Assembly (NCBI GenBank): GCA_036570165.1
Contig: DATCPI010000116.1
Location: 28,107-92,106, forward strand
DNA length: 64,000 nt
Source of the DNA: Candidatus Dormiibacterota bacterium
GTDB taxonomy: Bacteria; Chloroflexota; Dormibacteria; Dormibacterales; Dormibacteraceae
Reading direction: 5' to 3'
The position numbers and the translations under genes are program-made. Under the pieces are notes generated by a model, which was given only the letters and a program-made list of their open reading frames with translations, was not told the DNA's origin and did no database searches. Of this stretch, positions 11,080 to 44,125 are shown piece by piece. Position 1 is the stretch's first letter. The number at the start of each line of letters is the position of its first letter.

Positions 11080-11105
11080 GGTTACGCGGGTGAAACAATG
11101 GCACT

Positions 11106-27756: not shown

Positions 27757-28859
27757 AGCCGATCAAGCACCTCTACCTTCACATCCCGTTCTGCAAGCAC
27801 AAGTGCGGGTACTGCGACTTCAACGCGTATGCGGGCATGGACCGGCTGATGCCCGACTACGTCGACGCGCTCGAACGTGAGCTGTCCCTGGCGCGCGATC
27901 TCTACCCGTTCGAGCCCCTGGAGACCGTCTACCTCGGCGGAGGCACGCCGAGCCTGCTGCCCGCTGAGCTCGCGACCCGATTGCTCGGCTACATCCGGGC
28001 CAACTTCGACCTCGCTCCCGACGCCGAGGTCACGCTCGAAGCCAATCCGGCCAGCACCGACGAGGCAAAGTTGACCGCCTGGCAGGAAGGCGGCGTCAAC
28101 CGCCTCAGCCTCGGCGTCCAGGGTTTTGACGGACGCGCGCTCGCGGTGCTGGAGCGAAGGACGGACGCCGCCCAGGCGACCCGCGCCTTCGAGCTCGCCC
28201 GTTCGATGGGGATGCGCAACATCAGCATCGACCTGATCTATGCGGTCCCGTTCCAGGATCTCGAGTCATGGCTGGAGACGCTGCGCCGCGGGCTTGCGCT
28301 CGGTCCCGACCACGTCTCGACGTACTGCCTCACGTTCGAGGAAGGCACCCTTTTGTGGCGCCGTCGCGCTGCGGGTCGGGTACCCGAGGTCGATTCCGAC
28401 CTGCAATGGGACCAGCTCGACGCAGCGTGTGTCGAGATGGAGCGGGCTGGTTTCCGACGCTATGAGGTCTCGAGCTGGGCCCGACCAGGATTCGAATCGG
28501 GACACAACCAGGCGTACTGGCGGTGCCGGCCGGTGTATGGAGCCGGTGCCGGTGCGCACTCGTATGCCACCGACGGCTTGACCGCTCGCCGGTGGTGGAA
28601 CGTCGCCAGGCCTCGTGACTACATTGCCGCGTGCCCCAAGCCAGTGGCGGATGGGGAGGACCTGGCGGCCCGCAAGACGGCGGCCGAGTTTCTGATGTTG
28701 GGCCTACGGACCGCGGAGGGGATCGCGCCCCCGGCGGGGTTCGACTCCGAGCTCGCCCAGCTGGCGACGGGCGGCCTCATCGACTATGTCGACGGCCGGG
28801 CCGTGCCGACCCGGCGCGGCATGGACCTGCACAACCAGATCGCGCTCGCGGTACTTTAG
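27753..28859 (+). CDS. hemW: Radical SAM heme chaperone HemW (HemN-like, oxygen-independent coproporphyrinogen oxidase family)
   Basis: LYLHIPFCKHKCGYCDF (CxxxCxxC), GGGTPS, and a HemN_C-like end. Confidence 0.9.
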   Translation: MKPIKHLYLHIPFCKHKCGYCDFNAYAGMDRLMPDYVDALERELSLARDLYPFEPLETVYLGGGTPSLLPAELATRLLGYIRANFDLAPDAEVTLEANPASTDEAKLTAWQEGGVNRLSLGVQGFDGRALAVLERRTDAAQATRAFELARSMGMRNISIDLIYAVPFQDLESWLETLRRGLALGPDHVSTYCLTFEEGTLLWRRRAAGRVPEVDSDLQWDQLDAACVEMERAGFRRYEVSSWARPGFESGHNQAYWRCRPVYGAGAGAHSYATDGLTARRWWNVARPRDYIAACPKPVADGEDLAARKTAAEFLMLGLRTAEGIAPPAGFDSELAQLATGGLIDYVDGRAVPTRRGMDLHNQIALAVL

Positions 28860-28862
28860 TAC

Positions 28863-28889
28863 CTAGCACTCTGCCTGGCAGAGTGCTGA
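28863..28889 (+). promoter_or_regulatory. CIRCE operator (HrcA binding site)
   Basis: CTAGCACTC-TGCCTGGCA-GAGTGCTGA, compared with the consensus TTAGCACTC-N9-GAGTGCTAA. It lies 6 nt upstream of the hrcA ATG. Confidence 0.85.
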
Positions 28890-28894
28890 AAGCC

Positions 28895-29905
28895 ATGGAA
28901 AACAGGAAACAGGCGATCCTTCGGGCGGTGGTGAAGGAGTTCACCACGAGCGCCGTGCCCGTCGGTTCCCAGGCGCTCCAGAGCCGCTACTTCGTCAATC
29001 TCTCGTCCGCGACGATCCGGAGCGAGCTGGCTGAGCTCGCCGATCTGGGCTACCTGGCCCAGCCGCACACCTCGGCCGGCCGGGTGCCGACCGACTCGGG
29101 TTATCGGTACTTCGTCGACTTTCTAATGGACCTCGAGACGATCCCCGAACAGGTCGGGTCTTTCATCGACCACGAGCTCCGGCAGGCGCCCGCGGACGTC
29201 CAGGGCATGGTCGAGAAGGTGGCGATGACGCTTGCCGCCGTGACCCAGAACGCGTCCGTCGCCAGCGCGCCGCAGGGCTCGCAAGCTCGGATCAAGCACC
29301 TGGACCTGGTTTCCCTCGAGCCAACCGAGGTGCTGCTGATCCTCCTGCTGGAGGGGAACCTCCTCCGCCAGCAGGTGGTCACCGTCACGCAGGAAGCAAC
29401 CCAGGCCGAGCTCACCGCGCTCACCGCGAGGTTCAACTCGACGCTCTCCGGCCAGGGAAGCGAGGACGCACGCCGCCTCTACGACAGCGCCGAGCTTGGG
29501 CTCGAAAAGGAGCTGCTTGGACGGGTCGTGACCGTGCTCGACATCTACGAGCAGGGCTCCGAAAGCCTTGTCGTCCACGATGGCGTCCGCAACCTGCTGC
29601 GACAGCCTGAGTTTGCGGAATCCTCGCGCCTTCACCAGGTGCTGGAGGTGCTGGAGGAGACCCGCTACCTGACCGTGCTGCTCCGCCAACTCATCGGCGA
29701 GTCAGACCTCCAGATCGTAATCGGGTCCGAAAACGCCTCGAGCCAGCTGCAGGGATGTGCCGTGGTGCTGACGACATATGGTCCGTCCAACCGGCTCAAG
29801 GGCGTGCTTGGCGTGATCGGGCCGACGCGCATGGCGTACAGCCAGACGGTCGCCCGTCTCCAGGCGGTCGCCCGCAGCGCGAGCGAGCGCATGGCCGAGC
29901 AGTGA
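28895..29905 (+). CDS. hrcA: Heat-inducible transcription repressor HrcA
   Basis: MENRKQAILRAVVKEFTTSAVPVGSQAL is the winged-helix N-terminus. The upstream part of the 424-aa ORF overlaps hemW in another frame. Confidence 0.9.
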   Translation: MENRKQAILRAVVKEFTTSAVPVGSQALQSRYFVNLSSATIRSELAELADLGYLAQPHTSAGRVPTDSGYRYFVDFLMDLETIPEQVGSFIDHELRQAPADVQGMVEKVAMTLAAVTQNASVASAPQGSQARIKHLDLVSLEPTEVLLILLLEGNLLRQQVVTVTQEATQAELTALTARFNSTLSGQGSEDARRLYDSAELGLEKELLGRVVTVLDIYEQGSESLVVHDGVRNLLRQPEFAESSRLHQVLEVLEETRYLTVLLRQLIGESDLQIVIGSENASSQLQGCAVVLTTYGPSNRLKGVLGVIGPTRMAYSQTVARLQAVARSASERMAEQ

Positions 29906-29952
29906 GGCTCTGAAAGTTTGAAACTGCGCTTTTTCGCGGTATCTAGCAATTA

Positions 29953-30519
29953 ATGACCACGCGCAAGCATCCACACGACCCGCACGAGCCAGAGCTGCGC
30001 AGCGAAACGGTCGATGGGCCGGATTCTCGGGCCGTCGCTTCGATGGAAGCCAAGATCGCCGAGCTGGAATCAGCGCTCGCCGAGACCAAGGACCGCTACC
30101 TGAGACTGGCCGCCGACTTCGACAACTTCAAAAAGCGGACTCGCCAGGGCCAGCTGGACACGATCCAGCACGCGTCTGCAGATCTGATCGCCCGGCTCCT
30201 GCCCGCCCTCGACGACCTGCGCAAGGCGCTCGACCACAGGCCGGATGACGTTGACGAGGCATGGGTCAAGGGCCTCGAGCTAAGCGTCCGCAAGCTCGAG
30301 GAGGCGCTCGGTGCGCACGGCCTGGAGCCGATCCAAGCCGTCGGCGAGAGCTTCGACCCGAAGCTCCACGAGGCGATCGGGTATGAAGAGTCCGCTGAGC
30401 ACCCTGAGGACACGGTGACCTCAGAGCTGCGGCGCGGCTACCGGATCCGCGACCGTGTCGTCAGGCCGGCGCTCGTGAAGCTGGCGCGGCCGCCCGCGCT
30501 TCCAACCTCAGACAGCTAA
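29953..30519 (+). CDS. grpE: Nucleotide exchange factor GrpE
   Basis: YLRLAADFDNFKKRT and FDPKLHEAI motifs. Confidence 0.9.
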   Translation: MTTRKHPHDPHEPELRSETVDGPDSRAVASMEAKIAELESALAETKDRYLRLAADFDNFKKRTRQGQLDTIQHASADLIARLLPALDDLRKALDHRPDDVDEAWVKGLELSVRKLEEALGAHGLEPIQAVGESFDPKLHEAIGYEESAEHPEDTVTSELRRGYRIRDRVVRPALVKLARPPALPTSDS

Positions 30520-30535
30520 CCCCACAGACGATAAT

Positions 30536-31657
30536 TTGGCAGTCAAGCGCGACTACTACGAGGTCCTGGGTGTGGCCCGTCAGTGCTCTCCCGAGGACCT
30601 CAAGCGCGCCTTTCGCAAGATCGCGATGGACTCGCACCCCGACCGCAACCCTGACGACCCCATCGCGTCCGTCCGGTTCAAGGAAGCCAGCGAGGCGTAC
30701 GGCGTGCTCTCCGACCCAGGACGGCGTCGCACGTACGACATGTTCGGCCACGCCGCGGTCGAGTCGGGCGGTGGACCCGGCGTCGACTTTTCCGACATGC
30801 CGTTCGCGGACATTTTCGACACCTTTTTCGGCGGGGGTTTCAGCGGTCGCGCGAGACGCGAAAGGTCCAACCGCGGCGACGATCTCCGGTACGACCTGAC
30901 GATCACCTTCGACGAGGCGTTCACCGGCGTCGAAAAGCAGGTCGACATCGCGAGACTTGCCACCTGCGACCGATGCTCCGGCAGCGGCGCCGAGCCTGGT
31001 ACAGGCGAGGAGACGTGCCCTGGGTGTCGCGGGTCGGGCCAGGTCCGGCGGCAAGCGCAATCGATCTTCGGCCAGGTCGTGACCACGGCCACCTGTCCAA
31101 CCTGCCGTGGTGCGGGCAGGCTGCTCAAGAACCCGTGCCTGGAATGCCGCGGCCAGGGCCGCATCCAAAAGCCGAAACGACTCGCGGTCAAGATTCCGGC
31201 CGGCGTGGACACCGGCTCGCAGATTCGGATCAGCGGGGAGGGGGAGTCCGGGCTCAGGGGCGGCCAGCCAGGAGACCTCTACGTCGTCCTGCGCGTCAAG
31301 GCCCACCCGCATCTCGCCAGGCACGAGCAGGACGTCGTGTACGAGCTCCGCGTCAACATGGTCCAGGCGGCGCTCGGCGACCGGATCGAGATCCCGACGC
31401 TCGAAGGGACGGTCGAGATCGCCATCCCGGGCGGAACTCAGAACGGCCAGTCGTTCCGCCTTGCCGGGCGCGGCATGCCGGACGTCCGGGGCGGACGCCG
31501 CGGCGACCAGTACGTCGTGGTCCAGGTGGTCGTCCCCAAGGACTTGACCCCGGAGCAGAAGGCTCTCCTCCGCAAGGTGGGCGGGCTCACCGGCAAGCCC
31601 GAGAAGGTGGCCAGGGGCTTCTTCGAGAAGCTTCGGGACGCCATCAGCCTGGATTGA
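30536..31657 (+). CDS. dnaJ: Molecular chaperone DnaJ
   Basis: DYYEVLGV...HPDRN J-domain, a G/F region, and four CxxCxG repeats (CDRCSGSG, CPGCRGSG, CPTCRGAG, CLECRGQG). TTG start. Confidence 0.95.
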   Translation: MAVKRDYYEVLGVARQCSPEDLKRAFRKIAMDSHPDRNPDDPIASVRFKEASEAYGVLSDPGRRRTYDMFGHAAVESGGGPGVDFSDMPFADIFDTFFGGGFSGRARRERSNRGDDLRYDLTITFDEAFTGVEKQVDIARLATCDRCSGSGAEPGTGEETCPGCRGSGQVRRQAQSIFGQVVTTATCPTCRGAGRLLKNPCLECRGQGRIQKPKRLAVKIPAGVDTGSQIRISGEGESGLRGGQPGDLYVVLRVKAHPHLARHEQDVVYELRVNMVQAALGDRIEIPTLEGTVEIAIPGGTQNGQSFRLAGRGMPDVRGGRRGDQYVVVQVVVPKDLTPEQKALLRKVGGLTGKPEKVARGFFEKLRDAISLD

Positions 31658-32151: not shown

Positions 32152-35100
32152 GTGATCGAGTTGGCGAGCGATCAAGAGGCGTCCCTGCCTACGTCCACAA
32201 CCTCTTCCGCCCTGGACGCGGTAGCCGAATGGGCCAATGAGGGCCGGCGGCTGCATCGGTGGGCGCGACTCCTTCCCGTCATCACCGGGATCGCCGCCAC
32301 GCTCATCCTGGCTGCGGTCGGCTACCGGCTGTGGAGGGCGGACGTCGGCGCCGGTGAGCTGGTGGCCTGGGGTGGGGCTCTCTTCGTCCTGGCCGGCCTG
32401 GCTTACCTCAGCCAGCGCGTGCTCGACCGCAGCCTGGCGCGGCAGGCCCAACGACAGGCCTCGCTCCTCCAGGCGATCAGCGACATCGGCGAAGGGCTGG
32501 TGATCACGGAGAACGGCCGCTACATTGCCTCCAACGCCGCGTACCAAACCCTGACCGGGTACGACGCCGCCGAGCTCAGGGCCTTTGGATCTCTGATCGA
32601 GCTGGCCCCCGAAGAGGAGCGCCAGGGGCTGACCGACCAGCTTTCCAGCCGTTTGGTCGGCGGCGACGTGCCGCACCGCTACGAATCGGCGCTGATGACG
32701 AAGGATGGGCGCCACATCCAGGTCGAGACCGCCGTCCGCCGCCTGGCCGCCGAAGGCAAGCACCGGCTGCTCGCCCTCGTTCACGACATCAGCGAGCGGC
32801 ACCGCATGGAGGAGGCCGAGCGCGAGAGCGAGACGAGGTTCCGCACCCTGTTCGAGCAGGCTCAGGCGGGCATGGCCTTCGCGGCGCTGGACGGCCACAT
32901 CACCACCGTGAACCCCGCTTTTTGCCAGTTGGTGGGCTTCAGCCACGCCGAGCTTTCAAATCTGTCGCTGATCGACATCACCTACCCCGAAGAGGTCCCC
33001 GCCCTTCAGCAGGCGATGTCCCGCATGCTGGCGGGCCAGGAAGAGGGGACACGCATTGAGATGCGATACACCCGAAAGGACGGCGAGCCGGTTTGGGTAG
33101 ACGTCACGACCCGACTCGTGCGTGGCCCAGACAACAATCCGCTGTACCTCCAAACCGTCGCGGTCGACATTCGCGACCGCAAGCGAGCCGAGGTTCTGCA
33201 AGCGGCCCGTTTCGCGGTCACCCAGGCGCTGGTCACCTCGCCGGGCTGGGAAAAGGCGGCGCCGGGCGTCCTCGAAGGGCTGTGCATGACGCTCGATTGG
33301 GAGCTTGCCGAGTACTGGGAGGTCGATGCGGAACGCGAAGCGATGCACTTTGTGACCTCATGGAAAAGGCCGGGGCGGGACACTTCGAGCTACGAGGCCA
33401 CCGCGTCTCAGACGAGCTACAAGCGCGGCGAGGGATTGGCGGGGCGAGTATGGGAAACGGGTACTCCCGTTTCGATACAGGACGTCGCCTCCGACGATTC
33501 GCCACGCTCGGCCGCCGCCGTCGCCGCGGGCCTAAAGGGAATCGTGGGATTCCCGGTGCGGAGCGGGCGCCGGGTCGTTGGGATGATCGCGCTTCACACG
33601 TGGGCGCCGCGCGACCTCGACGAGGGCTTGCTAGCGGTCATGAACGACGTCGGTTCGCAGATCGGCGAGTTCGTCGAGCGCAAGCGCGCCGAGGTGGCGC
33701 TGCAGGAGAGCGAAAAGCGGATGCGCTCAGTCCTCGACAACGTCTCGGACGGGATCGCCACGATCGAGCAGACAGGCATCATCGAGTCCGCCAACCCGGC
33801 TGTCGTCAAGCTGTTCGGCTATTCAGAGCAGGACCTGGTCGGTCAGCAGGCGGACGTGCTGATCGCGACCACGCATCGCAGCGCGTTCATCAACTACCTG
33901 GAACGGCGGCTCAAGCTCGACATCCCGGTCAGCGGCGCGCACGAGACGATGGGCAAGCGCAAGAACGGAAGCCTTTTTCCTCTCGAGTTCGTCGTCAGCT
34001 CGATGCAGATCGGCTCGCGTCATGTGTTCATCGCCACGCTCCGCGACATCTCGGAGCGCAAGGCGCACACCGATGCGCTCGAGTACCAGGCTCTGCACGA
34101 CGCGCTGACCGGGCTGCCAAATCGCAGCCTTTTCGGCGACCGCCTCCGCCAGGCGCTGTTGGCGGCGCGCCGCAACCAGAAGATGTTCGGCGTTCTGCTG
34201 CTCGACCTCGATCGCTTCAAGGACATCAACGACGCGCTCGGTCACGACCGCGGTGACAGCCTGCTGCAAGAGGTGACCGCGCGCCTGCGCGGCGTCCTGC
34301 GTGCGACCGACACGATTGCCCGGCTCGGCGGTGACGAGTTCGCGGTGCTCACCACCGACGCCAAGCATCCCGATGACGTGGTGTCCACCGCACGCAAAAT
34401 CCTGGCCGCCCTCGAAGGGCCTTTCGCGATCGCCGACCAGATGGTCGAGACAGGCGCCTCGATCGGCATCGCGATGTACCCCGTCCACGGGGACGATCCG
34501 AGCACGCTGCTGCGCCGCGCGGACGTTGCGATGTACGTTGCCAAGCGCTCGGGCGGCGGGTTCGCCGTGTACGCGCCGGAGCAGGAGGCGCAGACGCTGC
34601 GCCGTTCCGGGCTGGCCGGCGAGCTGCGGCGGTCGATCCCCCAGGGTGAGCTCGTCCTGCATTACCAACCTCAGGTCACCCTCGCCACTGGCGCGATTCA
34701 TTCGGTCGAGGCGCTGGTGCGCTGGAACCATCCCCGAGAAGGGCTCATGCCGCCCGACCGCTTCATCCCCATGGCCGAGGAGACCGGCATCATCCATCCG
34801 CTCACCGCGTGGGTCCTGGATTCAGCGCTCGCGCAGCTGGTCAAGTGGCTCGAGGACGGGCTGGACGTTTCCGTATCGCTCAACGTGTCGCCTCGCAACA
34901 TCGAAGACCACTCGTTGGAGGAGATGGTCGCGAGGGCCCTCGGCACGTTCAAAGTCGAGCCGCAGCGGCTCACGCTCGAGATCACAGAGGGTGTGGCGAT
35001 GGCCGCGGCCGCGGCCAAGGCGCTGCACAGGTTGAACGAGATGGGTGTGCGGCTGGCCCTCGACGATTTCGGGACCGGCTACTCCTCGCTGCTGTACCTC

Positions 35101-35382
35101 ATGCGCCTACCGGTTAACGAGATCAAGATCGACCGCTCATTCGTGTCGGCACTCGCCTCCGACCCTGACTCGGGCGCGATAGTGCGCTCGGCCGTCGGGC
35201 TGGGTCATAACCTCGGCCTGCGAGTGGTCGCGGAAGGTCTGCAGGACCGCGCCGCGGAAGCCATCCTGATCGAAGCCGGCTGTGATGCGGCGCAGGGATT
35301 CCTGGTGGGGCGGCCGACCGCCGAGCGCGACATGACGGACCTCCTGCTTGCTCACTCAGGCCTCGCCAAACAGCTGGACTGA
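32152..35382 (+). CDS. Membrane-anchored PAS-PAS-GAF-PAS-GGDEF-EAL c-di-GMP signalling protein
   Basis: Two N-terminal TM segments and repeated PAS-like blocks (VITENGRY..., ...TVNPAFCQLVGFSHAEL, ...ESANPAVVKLFGYSEQDL). I-site RATD sits 5 aa before an intact RLGGDEFAV. Intact EAL (VEALVRW), DDFGTGYSSL and EIKIDRSF. Confidence 0.9.
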   Translation: MIELASDQEASLPTSTTSSALDAVAEWANEGRRLHRWARLLPVITGIAATLILAAVGYRLWRADVGAGELVAWGGALFVLAGLAYLSQRVLDRSLARQAQRQASLLQAISDIGEGLVITENGRYIASNAAYQTLTGYDAAELRAFGSLIELAPEEERQGLTDQLSSRLVGGDVPHRYESALMTKDGRHIQVETAVRRLAAEGKHRLLALVHDISERHRMEEAERESETRFRTLFEQAQAGMAFAALDGHITTVNPAFCQLVGFSHAELSNLSLIDITYPEEVPALQQAMSRMLAGQEEGTRIEMRYTRKDGEPVWVDVTTRLVRGPDNNPLYLQTVAVDIRDRKRAEVLQAARFAVTQALVTSPGWEKAAPGVLEGLCMTLDWELAEYWEVDAEREAMHFVTSWKRPGRDTSSYEATASQTSYKRGEGLAGRVWETGTPVSIQDVASDDSPRSAAAVAAGLKGIVGFPVRSGRRVVGMIALHTWAPRDLDEGLLAVMNDVGSQIGEFVERKRAEVALQESEKRMRSVLDNVSDGIATIEQTGIIESANPAVVKLFGYSEQDLVGQQADVLIATTHRSAFINYLERRLKLDIPVSGAHETMGKRKNGSLFPLEFVVSSMQIGSRHVFIATLRDISERKAHTDALEYQALHDALTGLPNRSLFGDRLRQALLAARRNQKMFGVLLLDLDRFKDINDALGHDRGDSLLQEVTARLRGVLRATDTIARLGGDEFAVLTTDAKHPDDVVSTARKILAALEGPFAIADQMVETGASIGIAMYPVHGDDPSTLLRRADVAMYVAKRSGGGFAVYAPEQEAQTLRRSGLAGELRRSIPQGELVLHYQPQVTLATGAIHSVEALVRWNHPREGLMPPDRFIPMAEETGIIHPLTAWVLDSALAQLVKWLEDGLDVSVSLNVSPRNIEDHSLEEMVARALGTFKVEPQRLTLEITEGVAMAAAAAKALHRLNEMGVRLALDDFGTGYSSLLYLMRLPVNEIKIDRSFVSALASDPDSGAIVRSAVGLGHNLGLRVVAEGLQDRAAEAILIEAGCDAAQGFLVGRPTAERDMTDLLLAHSGLAKQLD

Positions 35383-35556: not shown

Positions 35557-36393
35557 GTGAAAGCGATTGTGCTCGGGGCCGCAGGGCAGCTTGGGTCGGC
35601 GCTTGCACGGCTGATCGGCGAGGACTCCGGTGTGACGCATGCGGAGGTGTCTGTCACCGATCAGCATGCTCTTGATGCTCTCCTGAACAGCCGGAGTCCG
35701 GAGCTGGTGTTCAACTGCGCCGCATACAACGCGGTGGACCGGGCAGAGGCGGAGCGGGCCCTGGCCTATGCGGTCAACTCGGAAGGCCCGGCCAACGTCG
35801 CCATGTCGTGCGCGCGCCATGGGGTCCGGCTCGTCCATTTCTCGACCAACTTCGTGTTCGACGGTGCCCTCGAGCGCCCTTACGTCGAGACCGACATTCC
35901 GGCGCCGCTCAGCGTCTACGGATCATCCAAGCTCGAGGGGGAGCAGAGGGTGCTGGATCTTCTGCCGGAGGCGCTCGTGATCAGGACCTCCGCAGTCTTT
36001 GGTGACACGGGCTCGGCAGTCAAGGGCGGGAGCTTCCCCGAACGGATCGTGTCGCGTGCCCGGCTCGGTCTGCCGCTGCGAGTTGTGGCCGACCAGAGGG
36101 TCAACCCGACTTACGCGGGCGACCTGGCCCCGGCCGCGATCAAGCTCGCGGAAAGCCGCCTGGAAGGTGTCGTCCATGTCGTCGCCGCGGGTTGCGCGGG
36201 CTGGGACGAATTCGCCCGTGCGGCGCTGTCGGAGCTGGGCGTCACTGCGAAGGTGGAAGCCATTGTGTCCGCCGAGCTGGCCACGCCTGCGGCAAGACCG
36301 CTCAACGGATGCCTTGAGTCCAGTCGGGCGGCCCCGCTGAGGCCCTGGCGGGAGGGGCTCCACGAATGGGCCGTGAGGCGTCGTGGAGCATAA
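35557..36393 (+). CDS. rmlD: dTDP-4-dehydrorhamnose reductase
   Basis: MKAIVLGAAGQLGSAL, FNCAAYNAVDRAE and STNFVFDG...PLSVYGSSKLEGE (YxxxK). GTG start. Confidence 0.8.
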   Translation: MKAIVLGAAGQLGSALARLIGEDSGVTHAEVSVTDQHALDALLNSRSPELVFNCAAYNAVDRAEAERALAYAVNSEGPANVAMSCARHGVRLVHFSTNFVFDGALERPYVETDIPAPLSVYGSSKLEGEQRVLDLLPEALVIRTSAVFGDTGSAVKGGSFPERIVSRARLGLPLRVVADQRVNPTYAGDLAPAAIKLAESRLEGVVHVVAAGCAGWDEFARAALSELGVTAKVEAIVSAELATPAARPLNGCLESSRAAPLRPWREGLHEWAVRRRGA

Positions 36394-37268: not shown

Positions 37269-39694
37269 TGGCGGGGGACGAATCGGGTTCGCATTCGGAG
37301 CCGCGGGCTGACCGCGGTCAGCTCGTCTGGAGCATCCTTCTGAACCTCATCCTGATCGCCGCGGTCGTCCTTGGGGTGATACCCATCGTCGCCATCGCTC
37401 GTGGCTTTGTCGAGCTGGTGACCGAGTCGAAGACTCGCAGCGGGGCGGACTGGGTCGGATACGGGTTCGCGTTCACCGGCCTGTTTCTCGGTGCGGTCTT
37501 CTTCGCATATGCGATCAAGTACTACCTCAGCACGGCCATCGTGCTGCTGACGACGCTGGCGTTCGGGGGTCCTCGCAACGGCAACGGCAACGGCAACGGT
37601 CACGGCTCGCCGAACCTCACCGGCCACAGCCGCATCAACGCCAATGGCAACGGCAACGGCTACCACATCGATCTCGGCTATCACCCGTTCGTCTCAATCC
37701 ACGTCGCCGCATACAACGAAAAGCGCGTCATCGAGCGCCTTCTCCAAGCACTCGACCAGCTCGAGTACCCCGAGTACGAGGTCGTCGTGGTCGATGACTC
37801 GAACGATGAGTCGGTGCAGATACTGCAGGCATGGCGGAACAGGCCACGCTTCAAGATCCTCCACCGCGCCACCCGCAAGGGGTACAAGGGGGGCGCGCTC
37901 CAGGAGGCGCTGAAGGTCACCGACCCCAGGGCCGAATACATCGTCGTCTTCGACGCCGACTCGGTCCCATTCCCGGACTCGATCGATCGTCTTCTGCCTC
38001 ATTTCTATCGAGTCAGCGAGGGCACGGCCAACCGGATGCTGGAGTCGAACTTCGGTCGCGCTGAGCCTCCGTCGGAACCTGGGCAGATCAAGCGCAGGAC
38101 AGAGGTCGCGGCCGTGCAGAGCTACCAGTGGCACGTCCTCAACAAGTCGGAGAGCTGGCTGACCGAAGCCGTGAGGGCCGAATACTCCGGCAGCTACATG
38201 GTCGAGCGCCCATTCCAGGACGCCGTCGGCGCTCTGAAGATGATCGCGGGCACCGCCTACATGATTCGCGCGGACGTCCTGCGCCAGGTCGGCTGGGGCA
38301 CGAGCATCACGGAGGACTGGGAGCTCACGCTCAAGCTCTACGCGCGCGGCTACAAGGTCGCCTACACGCCCTGGGCTGAGACGCCCGCCGAATGCGTCAG
38401 CACGTTCGCTCGGCTCGCCCGTCAGCGAATGCGGTGGGCCGAAGGCCACACCTACAACGTGCGCAAGTGGTTCCTGCCGATCATGCGGTCACCCTTTTTG
38501 ACCCCGCTGGAGAAGGGAGAGTTCCTCTTCGACTCCACCTATTACCTGCAGGCCGGGCTCTTCGTGGTCGGGACAGTGAGCTGGCTCATGTCGGAGACCG
38601 TGTTTCACACCCACGTGCCCGGCTGGACAGCGGTGCTCGGATGGTCGCTGCTCTTCTCCAACATCTTCGCGCTGCCGCTGATGAACCTGGGAGGGCTGAT
38701 CCTGGAAGAAGCCCCGAGGCGCGACATGCAGGGAGTATTTGGCGCGTTGGTGCTGTCCTTTGCGCTGGTTCCATTTCAGGGCTGGGCGGCTTTCAAGGGC
38801 CTCGTCAGCAAGGACGAAGGGCCGTGGTTCCGAACCCCAAAGACGGGTCGCGTCACAGACGAGGTCCACCACCTTCGCCGGCTCCAGCTCTTGCGGCGGT
38901 GGCTGTTGGGCCGGCGGGCTCGGCGACTGGAACTGACACCGATTGCCCGCACGGCGACGCCGGCGGTGGCACGCACCGTAATTCGGTCGCGGAATCGGTG
39001 GATCGGCTGGGGAGTCGCCCTCGCCATGCTCGCGTCCTTCGGCGGTTTGGCCTGGCTGGCTTCGCGTGCCCCTGTCGTCAGCGCCGCAGGCAACCCCCTG
39101 TACCTGCACGGCGGCGGCGTGGCGCCATGCACCGCCAGCACGCTCGACCAGGCGATCGGGATCCGGCCATTGGCGTCTGCGTGCTCGATCGGTGTGGGGA
39201 TCACGACGACCTGGGGATTCACGAACCTGCCTGCGCAGACCGTGGCCGCGGGGATCTGGAGCTTCACCATGTACTGGAGCGGGGGAACCGGGAACGCCAG
39301 CAACACGGTGGCGGTCAGCGCCGGCGTGTCCCTGACCGCCAGCTGCGCGACGTTCGTCGCGACGATCCCGAATCCGGGCACCACGTGGACGACGGACTTT
39401 GGATCTCTAGCCACGAACACCTCGAGCCCGTTCACCGTGAGCACAAGCGCGAGCCAGCTGCCGCTGGTGATTCCGCCAGGTGGGTCCCTTTGTCTGTCCG
39501 TCACTCTGACGCACAACACCGGCGGACCCGTGTTGATGCTCTATGACGGGGCGGCCGGCGTCGCGGACACGCGGGCGGTCCCGCCGAGCATCATCGTGCC
39601 CGAGTCAGTCCTGGGCCTGGTGGGGTTTGCCCTCCTGATACCTCTATTCACACGCCGCAAGCGCGTCCTCGAGCTCTTTAGGTTTCGGACATGA
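37268..39694 (+). CDS. Processive-type family 2 glycosyltransferase (synthase) with an extra C-terminal TM anchor, a ~190-aa extracytoplasmic domain and a PEP-CTERM-like tail
   Basis: The GT2 core has VSIHVAAYNE, VVVVDDSNDES, VVFDADSVP, ITEDWELT and the QxxRW motif RQRMRWAEG, plus multiple TM segments. The module at 38999-39694 is described in the findings. The ATG overlaps the upstream TGA (TGATG). Confidence 0.85.
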   Translation: MAGDESGSHSEPRADRGQLVWSILLNLILIAAVVLGVIPIVAIARGFVELVTESKTRSGADWVGYGFAFTGLFLGAVFFAYAIKYYLSTAIVLLTTLAFGGPRNGNGNGNGHGSPNLTGHSRINANGNGNGYHIDLGYHPFVSIHVAAYNEKRVIERLLQALDQLEYPEYEVVVVDDSNDESVQILQAWRNRPRFKILHRATRKGYKGGALQEALKVTDPRAEYIVVFDADSVPFPDSIDRLLPHFYRVSEGTANRMLESNFGRAEPPSEPGQIKRRTEVAAVQSYQWHVLNKSESWLTEAVRAEYSGSYMVERPFQDAVGALKMIAGTAYMIRADVLRQVGWGTSITEDWELTLKLYARGYKVAYTPWAETPAECVSTFARLARQRMRWAEGHTYNVRKWFLPIMRSPFLTPLEKGEFLFDSTYYLQAGLFVVGTVSWLMSETVFHTHVPGWTAVLGWSLLFSNIFALPLMNLGGLILEEAPRRDMQGVFGALVLSFALVPFQGWAAFKGLVSKDEGPWFRTPKTGRVTDEVHHLRRLQLLRRWLLGRRARRLELTPIARTATPAVARTVIRSRNRWIGWGVALAMLASFGGLAWLASRAPVVSAAGNPLYLHGGGVAPCTASTLDQAIGIRPLASACSIGVGITTTWGFTNLPAQTVAAGIWSFTMYWSGGTGNASNTVAVSAGVSLTASCATFVATIPNPGTTWTTDFGSLATNTSSPFTVSTSASQLPLVIPPGGSLCLSVTLTHNTGGPVLMLYDGAAGVADTRAVPPSIIVPESVLGLVGFALLIPLFTRRKRVLELFRFRT

Positions 39695-40275
39695 GAACTC
39701 GAGACCGCGACAACCTCAACCTGACGCTGCTTGCGCTGCTGTGTGCGCTGCTCATGCTGCTGCCGTTGGTGACGACTTTCGACGACCTCCTCACTGCGTG
39801 GGCGATGGGGCTCGGTGCGAACAACCCATTGCAAACGATCGTCCCGGTCGAGGCGCGGATGGTGGTGGGTCTCCTCGGCCTGGCGGGAATACATGCGGCG
39901 GCGTCCGGAAGTCACCTCGTGGTCTGGGATGGGAGCGGCGCGATGCACACTCTGTACATCTCGTGGAACTGCATCGGTTGGCAGAGCCTGATCCTGCTTG
40001 GTGTAAGTTTGCTGTCCGGCCTGCGCGGGCGACATCCACTCGAAGCTCGCGTCCAGGTCATCGTCATCGGCGTTGCCGGCACGATGCTGCTCAACCTCTT
40101 GCGCGTCGCTGCGGTCGCGGGCATCGCCGCTACGGTCGGCGTCACGCCCGCCGTCCTCTTTCACGATTACGGAGGCACGATCCTTCTCATCTCATTCCTC
40201 TTTGTGTTCTGGATGTTCGTTCAACGGTGGATTCTCGGTTCGGTGCCGTCAGACGAGCTTGAGGTGGCCGCGTGA
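39691..40275 (+). CDS. Minimal exosortase/archaeosortase-family protein (194 aa)
   Basis: Polytopic protein with ordered motifs: ISWNCIGWQSL (Cys94), LLNLLRVAAV (Arg138) and VLFHDYGGTIL (His158). The spacing resembles the Cys/Arg/His core of exosortases. ATGA overlap with the GT2 gene. Confidence 0.7.
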   Translation: MRTRDRDNLNLTLLALLCALLMLLPLVTTFDDLLTAWAMGLGANNPLQTIVPVEARMVVGLLGLAGIHAAASGSHLVVWDGSGAMHTLYISWNCIGWQSLILLGVSLLSGLRGRHPLEARVQVIVIGVAGTMLLNLLRVAAVAGIAATVGVTPAVLFHDYGGTILLISFLFVFWMFVQRWILGSVPSDELEVAA

Positions 40276-42500
40276 ACCGATGGCTTCGACTCGTCCTTCA
40301 GACAGCCCTTGGCCTGGTGCTGCTGTGGTTGTGGCTGCGCACCGTTTCGCTCACCGAGGTGATGAGCCATGCGCGAGTCCACAGCTGGGCCCCGGTGCTC
40401 CTGATGATCGCCCTCTTCCTACTGACGAGCCTCATCAGGGCCCGCCGCTGGCTGATTCTGCTGCGCCCGCTCGCCCCGGTCGGGATGGTCAGGGCGTTTG
40501 CCATGAACGCGGCCGGCGGACTCCTCAACTACGTGCTGCCGATTCGCTCGGGAGACGCCGCGCGCGCGTGGTGGCTGTGGCGGCGCCATCGCGTGCCGGC
40601 GGGATCGGCCCTGGCCACCATCGTGGTCGACAAGGCCTGCGACCTCGCCGCGGTGGCATTCGTCCTGGCGCTGCTCGAGGTGATCGCCTTGACCGGGATC
40701 GTGAGCGCTCCGCGCGGGCTCCTGGGCGCTGCCGCCCTGGCGGTCGCGCTGCTTGTCGCCGTGCTGGGAACGGCGCTGCTCGGCCCGCGGCTGGCGCGGT
40801 CATGGCTGGCCAAAAGGTTGCTGCCATCACGATTTGCGACGGCGATCGCGGGTCAAGCCTTTGCGTTCCGGGCCGGGGCTCGAGGTTTGTGGACTCCGGC
40901 GCTGGCAAGCCGGCTTGCCCTCCTGACGGTGCTGGCGTTGGTGATCGACGCCTTCAACTTCACGCTGCTGTTCGCCGCGGTGGGGATCTCGGTTCCGCCG
41001 CTGAAGGCGATGGCCGCGTATCCAGCGCTGCTGCTGAGCTTCGCCGTTCCGGCCGGGCCTGGATACGTCGGCAACCTGGAGGTGGCGGGGTCGCTGGTCC
41101 TGGGTGGCGGCCTGGGGTTGGCCCCGGCGGTTGCCGCCGGCGCCATCGTCCTGTACCACGCGCTCACAGCGGGATACGCCCTCGTCCTTGGACTCCTGGG
41201 CTTCCTTCTCGTCGGGGGCCGGCGCGCTGTTCGCGCCGGGGGGCCGCGCCGCGTAGCGGTCTTCCATTGCGGATTCACGTATTCGGGCGGCGGCGAGCGG
41301 ATCGTCATCGAAGAGGTGTTGGGACTACGAAGACGTGGTTACGACGTGGAGTGCTACGCGCCGACCGTCGATGAGTCGCGGTGCTACCCGGATTTGATTG
41401 GCGAGGCGCGCGTCCGAACTTTTCTGCCGCAGCTGCCGCGCTGGTTCCCGTTGCGGGAGGCAGTTCAGATGGCGGCTACTTCTTTGCTGATGCCTCTTTA
41501 TGCGTGGCGCTTTCGCGGAGTCGACGCCATCGTCGGGTGCAACCAGCCGAGCGCATGGATCGCCTGGTGGGCGGCGAGGTTGATGGACGTGCCCTACGTG
41601 GTCTATCTGAACCAGCCGAATCGCCTGGTGTATCCGCGCAACATCGACCGCGAGACGGGATGGGTGGCCAACGCCGACTACAGGCTGCTGGCGGCGATCG
41701 TGCTGCGCGCGACGCGATTCGTTGCGTGGGCCGACCGGCGCTCCGTGCAGGAGGCGGACCAGCTGCTCGTCAACGGCGATTACATCGGCGACATCATCCG
41801 GCGCACTTATCGTCGCGAAGCGGCTGATTGCCCGGCGGGTTGCCATGTTGCCGCGTCGGGCTTTCCGCTGCCCGTCGATGCGCGCTTTGCAGGTGGTTTG
41901 ACCATCAACGGTTATCCGATCCGGCGGCCGTACGTGCTGCTGACCAATCGTCACTACCCGCAGAAGCGATTCGACCTCGCGATCAGGGCGATCGCCGAGG
42001 TGCGCAAGCTCCACCCGCGAGTACAGCTCGTGATACCGGGTCCCTTCACTACACACACGGAGTCGCTCCAGGCACTGGTCGCGGAGCTGGGGCTGGCGGA
42101 GGCAGTGCTCTTCCTCGGCCCGATTGCAGAAGACGAGCTGCAGAAGCTGTACGAGGGAGCCGCCGTCTACGTATATCCGGCACCTGAGGAAGATTTCGGC
42201 ATGGGGGTCATCGAGTCGATGGCCAAGGGCGTGCCGGTGGTGGCGTGGAACCAGGCGGGGCCGACGGTCACTGTCGGGCCTGGCACGGGGCACCTTGCGG
42301 AGCCGCTCGTGGTGAGCGATTACGCGGCGGGCATCTCGCGGCTGCTTGACGATCCGTCGGAGAACCAGGCGACGGGAACACGTGCGTTCGAATGGGCGCG
42401 GCGGTTTGACTGGGAACGACACATCGACACGATGGAAAAGGTCGTCCTCGAGGTGGCACGCTCCCACGAACGATTCGCGGCGGAGGCTGCCACCGCTTGA
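40272..42500 (+). CDS. Flippase-like (LPG-synthase-TM / UPF0104) membrane domain fused to a GT4 (GT-B) glycosyltransferase
   Basis: The N-terminal ~320 aa are polytopic and carry LIRARRWLILLRPL...AGGLLNYVLPIRSGDAARAWWL. The C-terminus has a GT4 E-x7-E region (EEDFGMGVIESMAKGVPVVA). GTGA overlap. Confidence 0.8.
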   Translation: MNRWLRLVLQTALGLVLLWLWLRTVSLTEVMSHARVHSWAPVLLMIALFLLTSLIRARRWLILLRPLAPVGMVRAFAMNAAGGLLNYVLPIRSGDAARAWWLWRRHRVPAGSALATIVVDKACDLAAVAFVLALLEVIALTGIVSAPRGLLGAAALAVALLVAVLGTALLGPRLARSWLAKRLLPSRFATAIAGQAFAFRAGARGLWTPALASRLALLTVLALVIDAFNFTLLFAAVGISVPPLKAMAAYPALLLSFAVPAGPGYVGNLEVAGSLVLGGGLGLAPAVAAGAIVLYHALTAGYALVLGLLGFLLVGGRRAVRAGGPRRVAVFHCGFTYSGGGERIVIEEVLGLRRRGYDVECYAPTVDESRCYPDLIGEARVRTFLPQLPRWFPLREAVQMAATSLLMPLYAWRFRGVDAIVGCNQPSAWIAWWAARLMDVPYVVYLNQPNRLVYPRNIDRETGWVANADYRLLAAIVLRATRFVAWADRRSVQEADQLLVNGDYIGDIIRRTYRREAADCPAGCHVAASGFPLPVDARFAGGLTINGYPIRRPYVLLTNRHYPQKRFDLAIRAIAEVRKLHPRVQLVIPGPFTTHTESLQALVAELGLAEAVLFLGPIAEDELQKLYEGAAVYVYPAPEEDFGMGVIESMAKGVPVVAWNQAGPTVTVGPGTGHLAEPLVVSDYAAGISRLLDDPSENQATGTRAFEWARRFDWERHIDTMEKVVLEVARSHERFAAEAATA

Positions 42501-44125
42501 GGCTGCTGCCCAGGATCCTTCCCACCGAAGAGGAAGAGGAGCAGCGACTCGAGCAGCCAGATCCCGAGCCCCTGGGAGACACGAACGGTCCGTCGCTTCA
42601 TTGGGGCGGGCCGGCAATCGTGGCGGCGGGCGCCGCGATCCCGCGTCTCATTTATCTGTTCGCGTTCACGGATCCACAGAACGCAGGCCACGGGTTCACG
42701 GATGCCTATCACCACTGGCAAATTGCCTACTTGACCAAAGAGATCGGGCTCACCCACGGGCTACGCCTTTGGGACTTGCGGGGATGGGAGTACTACTGGG
42801 GGCTGCTGCACCCGGCTCTCACGGACCTTCTCTTTTTCGCCACCGGGTCACCGGACATCGTGCTGGCCCGGCTCCTGAGTCTTGTCTTCGGCTCCCTCAC
42901 CGTGGTGCTGATTTTTCTTCTCTGCCATCGCTACTGGGGCACAACCGTTGCGGTGGCCGCCAGCGCGTTTGCCGCGCTGGCACCGGCGAGCGTCTTCAAC
43001 GATGTCGCCGGCATGGCCGAACCGATTGGAGTCGCCCTGGTTCTCTTTGGAATCTGGTTGACGCCGAGGCATGGTTTCTGGGCAGGCGTGTCCTGGGCGT
43101 GCGCGGCGATGGCGAGGGTAGAGGCGTGGCTCTTCGGAGCGGGTCTGATCGTTGCCTGGCTGTTGGGAAGACGTCGGGGTCAGCCGCGGTGGTCGTTGGC
43201 GGCCGGCTGGGTGCTTGTGCTGGCTCTCTATGCGAAGTTTCTTTACGACCGGACCGGAAATCCCATCTATCCCGTCTACTGGAGCTTCCAGTTCGTCGCA
43301 TTTGGAGGGTTCGACTCGGGAGCGGTGGTTCCATCGGGCCAGGAGATGCTGGGGTTGCCGCTGGCTGGAGCCGTTGCGGTCTCGGCTGCCGGACTCGCTT
43401 GGTCCTTGTGGAAGCGACCACCTTCGTATTTGCTTCTCGTCTACGGATTCGGTTATTCGGCGTACAGCTTCGCCACGTTCCTGAAGGTCGATGACTGGAA
43501 AGAACGCCGCTTTGAGTTTCCAATGGACTTTGCCGCCATCCTCGTCGCAGTTCTGCTGTTCAAAGTCCTTCCGGAGCGGCGTCGGGGACTCGAGCCTCTA
43601 GGGTGGGCGATCGCGATTGCGGGTCTCCTGGTCGTCCAGATCTTTTGGATCCCGATCCAGAGTGCGTATTCCGCCACCGAACCTGGGTTCCGGGATCAGG
43701 TGCGCCTGGGACGTGCGATCGGGGTGGTCTACAACCGTCCGGAGTACAAGGGCGGGGGACTGACCGTGCCGGGCGACGATCCAACTCTGGTCTACGTATT
43801 GGTGCGTAACGAAAAGGTTCCGGGCGCTCGAATCTCGAGTGAGTTCTACGATCCTTTCTATTACCTGCCAGCCGGCTACCGGTATGCCGACCATAAGGAG
43901 AGCGTCGGAGCGTTGCTGAAATGCTGGCTGGCAAGCACGCAAACCCGGCTGCTCTTGGTGACGCCGCCCAGCGCGTTCAATCACTCGGTGGCGGATTACA
44001 ACGCCTTCATCGCCGACCATTCCCAGTGGTTTGTAGATACCGGGGCTCAATTGGACCCAGGGTGGTCACTCGTGGCTGTTCAGGTGCCAGCCCCTGGCCC
44101 GCACGAGTGCCCAGGGTCAGGGTAG
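42497..44125 (+). CDS. Polytopic membrane protein, GT-C (ArnT/PMT-like) putative glycosyltransferase
   Basis: About 11 hydrophobic segments, an acidic/aromatic first loop (FTDAYHHWQIAY) and a soluble C-terminal domain. Family assignment is by architecture only. TTGA overlap. Confidence 0.5.
   Translation: MRLLPRILPTEEEEEQRLEQPDPEPLGDTNGPSLHWGGPAIVAAGAAIPRLIYLFAFTDPQNAGHGFTDAYHHWQIAYLTKEIGLTHGLRLWDLRGWEYYWGLLHPALTDLLFFATGSPDIVLARLLSLVFGSLTVVLIFLLCHRYWGTTVAVAASAFAALAPASVFNDVAGMAEPIGVALVLFGIWLTPRHGFWAGVSWACAAMARVEAWLFGAGLIVAWLLGRRRGQPRWSLAAGWVLVLALYAKFLYDRTGNPIYPVYWSFQFVAFGGFDSGAVVPSGQEMLGLPLAGAVAVSAAGLAWSLWKRPPSYLLLVYGFGYSAYSFATFLKVDDWKERRFEFPMDFAAILVAVLLFKVLPERRRGLEPLGWAIAIAGLLVVQIFWIPIQSAYSATEPGFRDQVRLGRAIGVVYNRPEYKGGGLTVPGDDPTLVYVLVRNEKVPGARISSEFYDPFYYLPAGYRYADHKESVGALLKCWLASTQTRLLLVTPPSAFNHSVADYNAFIADHSQWFVDTGAQLDPGWSLVAVQVPAPGPHECPGSG

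Follow-up and report, generated by a model that had tools for sequence, protein, structure and literature searches.

A probable dedicated exosortase-type system with its single substrate built into the C-terminus of an exopolysaccharide synthase of Candidatus Dormibacterota

The prediction of exosortases in 2006 rested on their joint occurrence with PEP-CTERM proteins and exopolysaccharide loci, and the PEP-CTERM/exosortase (XrtA, EpsH) systems are those of Gram-negative bacteria (PMC1569441). The sole member of the superfamily with experimental proof is ArtA of the PGF-CTERM system of Haloferax volcanii, for which removal of the C-terminal helix and lipid attachment have been demonstrated; its predicted active-site residues were confirmed by mutagenesis, and the tripartite signal is still processed when a naturally occurring gene fusion puts it within a longer protein, providing a precedent for a sorting signal in a fused protein (PMC6098224). 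Here we describe a 64,000-nucleotide stretch from a Candidatus Dormiibacterota bacterium (GenBank assembly GCA_036570165.1, contig DATCPI010000116.1, positions 28,107 to 92,106 of the forward strand; the whole stretch is called the window below), in which a single open reading frame (ORF) encodes an 808-amino-acid protein made of a family 2 glycosyltransferase (GT2) synthase and a predicted exported module, and the next gene encodes a 194-amino-acid protein of the exosortase/archaeosortase family, hereafter the sortase. We think it probable that the two constitute a dedicated and so far unnamed exosortase-type system, the single substrate of which is built into the C-terminus of an exopolysaccharide synthase.

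The locus resembles PEP-CTERM/XrtA systems in having a Pro-Glu motif set against a transmembrane (TM) helix that is followed by an Arg-rich cluster, a membrane-embedded enzyme of the same superfamily with conserved Cys, Arg and His, genes linked to polysaccharide synthesis, and a Thr/Ser-rich substrate. It differs in that the tail falls outside the PEP-CTERM model, the third motif position varies where PEP-CTERM has Pro, the enzyme is only 194 amino acids long and the 8-TM form roughly 240-500, a single substrate, fused to the synthase, takes the place of many, and the hosts are Dormibacterota/Chloroflexota and not Proteobacteria-type diderms. In the PGF-CTERM/ArtA system the motif is PGF, the host and the lipid anchor are archaeal, and it is S-layer and other surface proteins, rather than a glycosyltransferase, that serve as substrates; against the model of ArtC, which is related to ArtA, the window sortase scores 30 bits where the cut-off is 100. 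Small (~160-190 amino acids) exosortase-family proteins encoded beside a GT2 or GT4 are also found in XrtG/TIGR03111, XrtP/NF053846 and XrtY/XYAG1, and the window GT2 weakly matches the XrtP- and XrtG-associated glycosyltransferase models, as the GT4 protein (40272-42500) weakly matches XYAG1. However, the sortase scores 17 against XrtG (cut-off 102.75), and the GT2 scores 31 against TIGR03111 (cut-off 364) and 45 against NF053846 (cut-off 520). We know of no target assigned to the XrtG system, whereas here a target is visible on the GT2 itself.

On the synthase side one close parallel is cellulose synthase, BcsA-BcsB, which is controlled by cyclic diguanylate (c-di-GMP); its extracytoplasmic, beta-rich, carbohydrate-binding partner BcsB has a single C-terminal TM helix that keeps it at the exit of the channel. 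In the window protein, too, a GT2 of processive type bears the D, DxD, TED and QxxRW motifs together with one like a gating loop, but BcsB is a separate, much larger and sequence-unrelated protein that is not processed by a sortase, and the window protein lacks PilZ. For NfrB we know of neither an exported module nor a sortase partner; MshEN domains bind c-di-GMP. NfrB-type c-di-GMP-controlled GT2 synthases with MshEN have been described (PMC8669469). As in the NfrB type, one relative of the window protein (P0398) joins GT2 to MshEN and GGDEF genes flank several loci, although the window protein itself has no MshEN. The arrangement, sought as a Dormibacterota exosortase or an exosortase-synthase fusion, was not found described in the searchable literature, in Pfam or in NCBIfam release 20. 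Although systems of this kind are already known, the novelty lies in the motif, the subfamily of the enzyme, the domain that serves as substrate, the GT2 fusion and the tandem polyprotein forms.

The fusion protein, its tail and its sortase partner

The fusion ORF contains no stop codon and keeps a G+C content at third codon positions (GC3) of 0.78-0.91 throughout its frame, and thus gives no sign of a frameshift in the window. An earlier note on this DNA had placed a hydrophobic helix, the stretch RAPVVSAAG, an outer domain and a tail in the same reading frame as the synthase, which translation and hydropathy bear out, and its coordinates for the helix are exact (Table 1). The outer domain does begin with NPLYLHGGG at residue 609 and does carry four Cys (621, 639, 693 and 742), but it spans ~165 amino acids (609-774) and not the ~190 first given; the tail of IIVPES, TM helix and RRKR is also as described, except that IIVPES begins at 39590, position 39596 being V777 and so offset by 6 nt.

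The synthase part is matched by Pfam PF13641, PF00535 and PF13632 over residues 137-440 and holds the motifs DDS (176), DAD (229), TED (348) and QRMRW (386, at 38423-38437). The D, DxD, TED, QxxRW set is the mark of processive beta-glycan synthases, and the protein combines it with the GT2 fold in the manner of the membrane synthases of the BcsA, PgaC, NodC and hyaluronan synthase type. The segment from TED to QxxRW (residues 326-394) aligns with BcsA residues 318-388 by phmmer, and Foldseek of the full-length model, itself poor, returned PcManGT, BcsA and hyaluronan synthase as generic GT2 matches. The NCBIfam equivalog cut-offs for PgaC, CelA and NodC are missed by the window GT2, and its polymer is therefore left unassigned. 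Hydropathy places synthase helices at residues 461-480 and 490-510; these precede invariant alignment columns at residues 517-527, the region of GPWFRTPKTG, which we take to resemble the gating loop of cellulose synthase (FxVTxK of BcsA). A basic stretch, RRLQLLRRW...RSRNR, occupies residues 537-577 and includes a linker whose length and composition differ between lineages. Between the N-terminal helices and the catalytic domain lies an Asn/Gly low-complexity loop (NGNGNGNGHG...NANGNGNGY; residues 100-136, 37565-37675), and N/G runs are similarly placed in distant relatives (P0402, P0400 and the GT2 of L052) and present too in the linker of group 3, defined below.

Tripartite sorting signals are described by their C-terminal placement, a near-invariant motif, a TM segment, two to five basic residues and either frequent occurrence within a genome on proteins that are not otherwise related or, in a dedicated system, regular adjacency of enzyme and target (10.1101/2023.06.07.544157). 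In the fusion protein the motif occupies residues 775-780 of 808, with the TM segment and basic cluster ending at 799, and this layout is conserved in all loci. At least three residues of the motif are near-invariant, V777 and P778 being invariant among 78 aligned homologues and E779 present in 77; P773, just upstream, and P792 are also invariant, and R797 is found in 76 and R799 in 66. The earlier note had read PES as the motif, but what is conserved is (I/V)VPE; the residue after Glu may be S, G, A, N, H, R or F (group 1 has S, G, A or N at this place, group 2 has H and group 3 has R) and is never Pro, giving tails of the form VVPES/G/A/N, VVPEH, FIPER, VPEG and VTEK. VPE or IPE is kept across all three Dormibacterota groups, with one exception (VVPDS), and in most distant relatives. 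The motif abuts the TM helix with no spacer, a junction described for signals cut by membrane-embedded enzymes (10.1101/2023.06.07.544157).

The sortase start codon overlaps the stop codon of the fusion by 4 nt (ATGA). Its product scores 33 bits against TIGR04178 (cut-off 23), compared with 35-40 bits for its relatives in other lineages, and carries C94 (39970-39972), R138 (40102-40104) and H158 (40162-40164) as candidate catalytic residues, within the motifs WNC.GWQS, N..R and HDY that are invariant among 21 aligned sortase sequences of 38-100% identity. A Cys, an Arg and a His make up the proposed catalytic triad of the exosortase family (10.1101/2023.06.07.544157). Dormibacterota homologues of the sortase are 84-91% identical. 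It lies below every named subfamily cut-off (XrtG, XrtX, XrtR, XrtH, XrtY, ArtC, CrtC and thaumarchaeosortase), the best subfamily scores for the window sortase and seven relatives being 13.6-40 bits against cut-offs of 86-250; the sortases of distant lineages pass the generic signature model only, and a sequence search of the PDB with the sortase returned no relative. The best reading of these comparisons is that the sortase represents an unnamed exosortase subfamily.

Fusion and sortase are found together wherever the pair could be inspected. A search with the full protein yielded more than 120 clusters of 782-886 amino acids and 72-87% identity that carry the fusion, annotated as GT2 or synthase-like glycosyltransferases where the source names them, and the source names assign the family to Candidatus Dormibacterota. 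A genome scan with the sortase gave 48 loci, 42 of them with enough upstream DNA, and in all 42 the ORF before the sortase ends in motif, TM helix and basic cluster; those ORFs not cut by the start of the locus measure 780-1005 amino acids from stop to stop. The two genes overlap by 4 nt in most close relatives (the rest are spaced by -1 to +5 nt) and are separated by 32-68 nt in two distant groups. The loci fall into group 1 (sortase identity 71-91%; tail PPSIVVPES-LLGF.GLALLIPLFT-GRRR), group 2 (55-61%; PSIVVPEHGSPLIGLAILLPLL...R.R) and group 3, which includes Candidatus Nephthysia (49-52%; VIFIPERLLTLLGLAVVAFPVLRRLRRW). BLAST detects the GT2 part in 42/42 ORFs and the outer domain in groups 1 and 2, between which the domain is 33-38% identical; in group 3 the domain is beyond BLAST detection. 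The homologues thus keep the (V/I)(V/I)PE motif, TM helix and basic cluster, as the earlier note had asked of them, despite the divergence of the domain. A metagenome scan with a diverse sortase alignment added 80 loci, all of them close group-1 loci, and each of the 75 with upstream DNA carries the tail (in 64 the motif is (V/I)VPES, and in 11 Ser is replaced by G, A or N).

These counts bear on the objection that an assembly or sequencing artefact has joined two genes, to which we give next to no credence and which is refuted to the extent that sequence data allow. Its support consists of database entries that resemble separate module genes, such as P0019 (253 amino acids), and of a short upstream ORF in five of the 49 metagenome loci where the upstream end of the ORF is in view. 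P0019, however, is produced by a run of 169 N in a scaffold, with the GT2 in the same frame beyond the gap, and the five short ORFs are disrupted by frameshifts or stops at five different positions, so that neither was retained as a separate gene; the other 44 of the 49 loci have an intact frame of at least 800 amino acids. The continuous GC3 with no stop codon in the window and the more than 120 independent clusters of fusion length also argue against an artefact. No clean stand-alone ORF for the module occurs within Dormibacterota, where this scaffold gap and these scattered frameshifts account for the apparent exceptions. Three of the five frameshifted loci belong to WN-series assemblies, and in the WN-series records L049, L058, L076 and L082 N-gaps or frameshifts in the GT2 fusion gene create spurious short 'hypothetical proteins'.

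A six-frame search for the tail pattern over 500 kb (the window and the loci) matched only GT2 fusions, which suggests a sorting system dedicated to one substrate. Enzyme and target adjoin in all 42 genome and all 75 metagenome loci and also in four loci of distant relatives (L050, L051, L054 and L055), whereas repeated occurrence of the tail on many proteins was not seen in the 500 kb. Four proteins with the tail on an unrelated N-terminus (P0386, P0371, P0375 and P0384) were considered as extra substrates and judged to be chimeric calls on short contigs.

Modularity, outer domain and conservation profile

Outside the three groups the pairing recurs in more distant loci that are Chloroflexota-like, and the module occurs in other contexts beside the same kind of sortase. 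In L055 a GGDEF gene is followed by a receiver (REC)-GT2-module gene and then by a 210-amino-acid sortase (46% identity, 4-nt overlap), and the cluster of the L055 protein includes an NCBI protein labelled Chloroflexi; in L054 a 209-amino-acid sortase gene lies directly upstream of a REC-GT2-module gene. In L050 the GT2 protein P0398 (L050:1093-5793; 1566 amino acids), followed by a 218-amino-acid sortase (38% identity), consists of receiver, MshEN, GT2 and three tandem modules, each unit comprising a helix ending in A-x-A, the domain, V-x-VPEG, a further helix and RRPR, with the basic cluster of one unit doubling as the n-region of the next. The presence of three tandem modules marks the module as a self-contained unit, and P0398 looks, from its sequence, like a membrane polyprotein of exported units; P0392, P0411 and P0413 have two units. 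The L051 contig (2 kb) carries a sortase gene and, 2 nt later, the gene for P0414 (262 amino acids), which runs from a putative N-terminal signal peptide through the same domain to an MVTEK-helix-basic tail; for this stand-alone module hhalign gives a probability of 95% over 203 columns, from signal helix to tail. The signal-like segment that is internal in the window protein (RSRNR, the 22-residue helix and APVVSA/A) is N-terminal in P0414, as judged by inspection of the sequence. Together with the sortase-family neighbour and its consistent pairing, the stand-alone and tandem modules support the earlier proposal that a complete exosortase-type substrate has been fused in frame to the synthase.

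In L052:3805-11058 (also in L053) a GT2 ORF meets a 1685-amino-acid protein with at least three larger modules that contain DUF2341 and have ITVLD in place of VPE. The two ORFs are joined via one in-frame TGA where the repeats have Trp, which could be a sequencing error, a pseudogene or read-through, and the 1685-amino-acid product is called in two assemblies. L052 was for this reason not counted as having separate GT2 and module genes; a small 180-amino-acid module upstream of its sortase lacks a start with a signal peptide and is possibly frameshifted. A ParA/MipZ-like ATPase recurs near the sortase in Chloroflexota-like L054 and L052, and a protein with the C-terminal motif ...QV/IVD.G.G.LR.(F/Y)IS recurs in L054 and L051 (coordinates L054:10165-11884, L052:2129-2899 and L051:1367-1861); both may be further components of the Chloroflexota-like version. 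L045, from Microgenomates of the candidate phyla radiation (CPR), has a 185-amino-acid sortase of the same clade (45% identity; 5926-6483) with no adjoining GT2, and ~2.4 kb away an 868-amino-acid ORF (8923-11529, minus strand) ends in ITPEG, a TM helix and KR...KKKR and is possibly a conventional substrate.

Structure prediction of the outer-domain region, a check proposed in the earlier note, gave a confident all-beta jelly-roll: AlphaFold2 on an alignment of 44 modules reached a predicted local distance difference test score (pLDDT) of 89.4 and a predicted template modelling score (pTM) of 0.80. The domain consists of 49% Thr, Ser, Gly and Ala and has 4% charged residues, compared with 29% and 21% in the GT2 part. 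The best Foldseek match in the PDB was the C-terminal jelly-roll of CocE/NonD hydrolases (E 3e-6, TM-score 0.59), followed at lower ranks by a family-16 carbohydrate-binding module (CBM16), Cry toxin domains and TNF-like jelly-rolls, and the domain resembles a carbohydrate-binding module. It has no match among the models of Pfam or NCBIfam, and when 1.84 billion representatives were searched with a profile, only 63 relatives came to light. One of the domain's relatives, P0409, is a secreted protein with two domain copies and no tail.

Conservation along the protein was expressed as the majority-residue fraction over 69 full-length orthologues. It is 0.91 in the GT2 catalytic region, 0.90 in the synthase helices and 0.90-0.93 over the C-terminal membrane helices taken with GPWFRTPKTG, falls to 0.50 in the linker (549-572), which has no invariant column, and then runs through helix 578-599 (0.68, conserved in hydrophobicity only), c-region 600-608 (0.89), outer domain (0.78), tail motif 771-780 (0.94, the highest of the module) and tail helix (0.75). 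Such a profile is characteristic of a signal peptide with a sorting signal and not of packed structural helices. Within the c-region P602 and A607 are invariant and A601, V603, V604 and A606 are conserved in at least 90%; a Pro at about -5 and A/V-x-A before the domain recur in distant relatives (VLRA/SPD, AIA/APD, AEA/APD and VGA/DG). This region is conserved yet modelled with a pLDDT of 59, which fits a recognition site better than a folded element, and cleavage by signal peptidase I at the conserved A-x-A is possible rather than likely.

The profile also bears on an alternative in which nothing is cut. The two flanking helices would be permanent, like the two further helices that BcsA has beyond its gating loop; the jelly-roll, inserted in the loop between them, would guide the polymer in the manner of the periplasmic BcsB, and the sortase homologue would be a non-proteolytic subunit or act elsewhere. 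GPWFRTPKTG does sit where BcsA has its gating loop, Foldseek and phmmer do relate the GT2 to BcsA, helix 578-599 is long enough for a stable anchor, the tail has no above-threshold match to a sorting signal, and the fusion occurs throughout Dormibacterota, as it should if the module were integral to the enzyme. However, the module helices evolve much faster than those of the synthase, with a hypervariable linker between the two sets, and strong conservation in them is confined to the membrane edges, at the A-x-A region and VPE. An integral helix pair leaves unexplained both the stand-alone signal-peptide module beside a sortase and the tandem copies, and the invariance of the sortase Cys, Arg and His, with the high identity of the enzyme within the phylum, points to an active enzyme. 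We therefore regard permanent helices as improbable.

A model for processing of the fusion protein

We propose the following model for the dedicated exosortase-type system that we favour. The 808-amino-acid protein would be made as one chain, of which residues 1 to ~548 form a membrane-embedded GT2 synthase of processive type whose last conserved element, GPWFRTPKTG and the basic helix, faces the cytoplasm. A floppy basic linker would then lead into an internal export signal, composed of the basic n-region, the 22-residue helix and A-P-V-V-x-A/A, that threads the ~165-amino-acid jelly-roll to the outside, after which the chain would re-enter the membrane via the final helix with (I/V)VPE at its outer end and RRKR inside. 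By analogy with ArtA/PGF-CTERM and XrtA/PEP-CTERM, the 194-amino-acid sortase would recognise VPE at the membrane surface, and Cys94, aided by Arg138 and His158, would cut there and so remove the helix and basic tail. The sortase would then probably transfer the freshly exposed C-terminus, with a membrane lipid or the synthase's own glycan as the acceptor, and the domain would come to sit on or in the polymer beside the extruding channel. Less certain is that signal peptidase I would also cut at A-x-A, in which case the fusion would act as a polyprotein, with one partner domain delivered for each synthase and three in P0398. The flippase-like+GT4, GT-C-like and RmlD-like proteins encoded nearby may supply or attach further sugars, possibly to the Thr/Ser-rich domain itself. 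The analysis establishes the architecture and how well it is conserved, the pairing of the genes, the family of the enzyme with its invariant residues, the fold of the domain and the modularity. The more speculative parts of the model are the cut by signal peptidase that would free the domain from the synthase, its linkage to the nascent glycan and its glycosylation by the other transferases of the operon.

Several points weigh against it. That Cys94 cuts at VPE, that the tail helix is lost and that an acceptor receives the product we infer by analogy with ArtA and XrtA, and both the one-step transpeptidation by the exosortase family and the acceptor used by bacterial exosortases are open questions in the field (PMC6098224; 10.1101/2023.06.07.544157). 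Searches with tail and domain against NCBIfam and Pfam at E <= 10 returned nothing useful: the only NCBIfam match to the tail was Synerg-CTERM, below threshold (E 0.14, 12.3 bits, cut-off 22.5), and Pfam had none, so that in the scoring that the earlier note had called for no curated sorting-signal model recognises the tail above its cut-off. The curated PEP-CTERM model (TIGR02595) does not match either, the Pro-Glu-Pro signature being absent, and of the earlier description of the tail as PEP-CTERM-like the layout of motif, TM helix and basic cluster stands while membership of that family does not. Each locus offers a single candidate substrate, so that the case cannot be built, as it usually is, on a tail shared by many unrelated proteins. 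The 22 residues of helix 578-599 are many for a signal peptide that is cleaved and typical of an anchor that is not, and the full-length AlphaFold model (pLDDT 60.6, pTM 0.41) is too poor to judge how the module helices pack on the synthase. Finally, the Foldseek matches of the outer domain are moderate (TM-score 0.5-0.6) and are mostly to a non-catalytic domain of hydrolases rather than to proven sugar binders.

A stronger form of the model, which we hold to be unlikely, takes the synthase to be a polyprotein from which signal peptidase I and the mini-exosortase excise the domain or domains, the C-terminal Glu being joined covalently to the nascent polysaccharide or to a lipid primer. The tail may, alternatively, be a true sortase signal that serves regulation, such that removal of the helix or module switches the synthase or marks it for turnover and nothing is attached to lipid or glycan. 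A one-to-one system in cis would suit such a switch, as would the c-di-GMP enzymes that adjoin the locus and the relatives with receiver and MshEN domains on the same protein, which together indicate a heavily regulated synthase; furthermore, protease activity of ArtA on a fused substrate has been demonstrated (PMC6098224). Regulatory cleavage agrees with most of the data but nevertheless seems to us distinctly improbable. A conserved outer domain that is capable of disulfides and resembles carbohydrate-binding modules exceeds what a switch needs, as do three tandem copies of the module, and the stand-alone modules beside a sortase have no synthase to regulate in cis.

Operon context and significance

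The features of the locus are collected in Table 1. Genes for a double helix-turn-helix (HTH) protein, the GT2 fusion, the sortase, a flippase-like+GT4 protein and a weakly GT-C-like polytopic protein follow one another in that order, with RmlD-like and GGDEF/EAL genes upstream. The stop codon of the HTH gene shares one base with the GT2 start codon (TGATG), and the flippase-like+GT4 gene overlaps the sortase gene and the polytopic protein gene by 4 nt each. The flippase-like+GT4 gene lies downstream at 81-92% identity in nearly all group-1 loci and is present in group 3; the position of the polytopic protein gene is conserved as well, its product matching Pfam PMT_2 (E 0.004) and STT3 (E 0.003) and NCBIfam archaeo_STT3 (E 0.006), all below cut-off. 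Large polytopic proteins follow the sortase in several lineages, being GT-C-like in the window, YfhO-like in L047:7414-9837 and without a Pfam match in L055:6270-8264. These polytopic proteins and the flippase-like+GT4 fusion hint at extracytoplasmic glycosylation within the system.

Table 1. Features of the fusion locus, with coordinates in the window
Feature	Coordinates	Strand	Basis
PAS-GAF-GGDEF-EAL protein, c-di-GMP turnover	32152..35382	+	Pfam EAL, GGDEF, PAS, GAF
RmlD-like NAD-dependent sugar-nucleotide reductase	35557..36393	+	Pfam RmlD_sub_bind, E 1e-73; upstream in group-1 loci
Double HTH protein, 126 amino acids	36888..37268	+	Pfam HTH_17, MerR, two stretches; conserved in group-1 loci
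Whole fusion ORF, GT2 synthase and exported module, 808 amino acids	37268..39694	+	ORF list, translation
GT2 catalytic region, residues 137-410	37676..38497	+	Pfam, motif positions, phmmer, Foldseek
Synthase C-terminal membrane helices, then GPWFRTPKTG (38825-38848)	38498..38848	+	Hydropathy, invariant columns
Basic helix HHLRRLQLLRRWLL, then hypervariable linker ending in n-region RSRNR; predicted cytoplasmic	38867..38998	+	Conservation profile
Signal-peptide-like or signal-anchor helix WIGWGVALAMLASFGGLAWLAS, residues 578-599	38999..39064	+	Kyte-Doolittle segment 579-598
c-region RAPVVSAAG, residues 600-608, candidate signal peptidase I site VSA/AG	39065..39091	+	Conservation
Extracytoplasmic jelly-roll beta-sandwich domain, residues 609-774, Thr/Ser/Gly-rich	39092..39589	+	AlphaFold2, Foldseek
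Sorting motif IIVPES, residues 775-780; core (I/V)VPE	39590..39607	+	Alignment
Tail TM helix VLGLVGFALLIPLFT, residues 781-795, Pro792 invariant	39608..39652	+	Hydropathy maximum 2.18
Basic cluster RRKR (residues 796-799), VLELFRFRT, stop codon; predicted cytoplasmic	39653..39694	+	Translation
Exosortase/archaeosortase-family protein, 194 amino acids, predicted processing enzyme	39691..40275	+	TIGR04178
Flippase-like domain (LPG_synthase_TM) and GT4 fusion, 742 amino acids	40272..42500	+	Pfam PF03706, PF00534, PF13692
Polytopic membrane protein, 542 amino acids, weakly GT-C-like	42497..44125	+	Sub-cut-off matches

The PAS-GAF-GGDEF-EAL protein has the same position in group-1 loci at 72-99% amino-acid identity, and this conserved GGDEF/EAL neighbour suggests c-di-GMP control of the operon. 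It is often the best-conserved gene of the neighbourhood, with 86-99% identity in most group-1 loci (72-75% in two) as against 63-82% for the GT2 fusion. Directly upstream of it lies an hrcA-grpE-dnaJ heat-shock cluster (28631-31657) that is unrelated to the fusion.

The locus condenses enzyme, substrate and synthase into two overlapping genes, a minimal in-cis, one-to-one system in which a link to polysaccharide synthesis, long suspected for exosortases, can be tested. It brings together an unnamed enzyme subfamily, a motif and a domain family that are at present annotated only as 'glycosyltransferase family 2 protein' and 'exosortase/archaeosortase family protein', and it extends exosortase-type systems to Dormibacterota, an abundant and poorly understood soil phylum, and to Chloroflexota. 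The relatives with tandem modules suggest, furthermore, that exported proteins may be made as membrane polyproteins. If the polyprotein with covalent joining were true, this would be the first exosortase substrate and exopolysaccharide machine to be a single gene product, and the acceptor chemistry of bacterial exosortases would become accessible from a minimal two-gene system.

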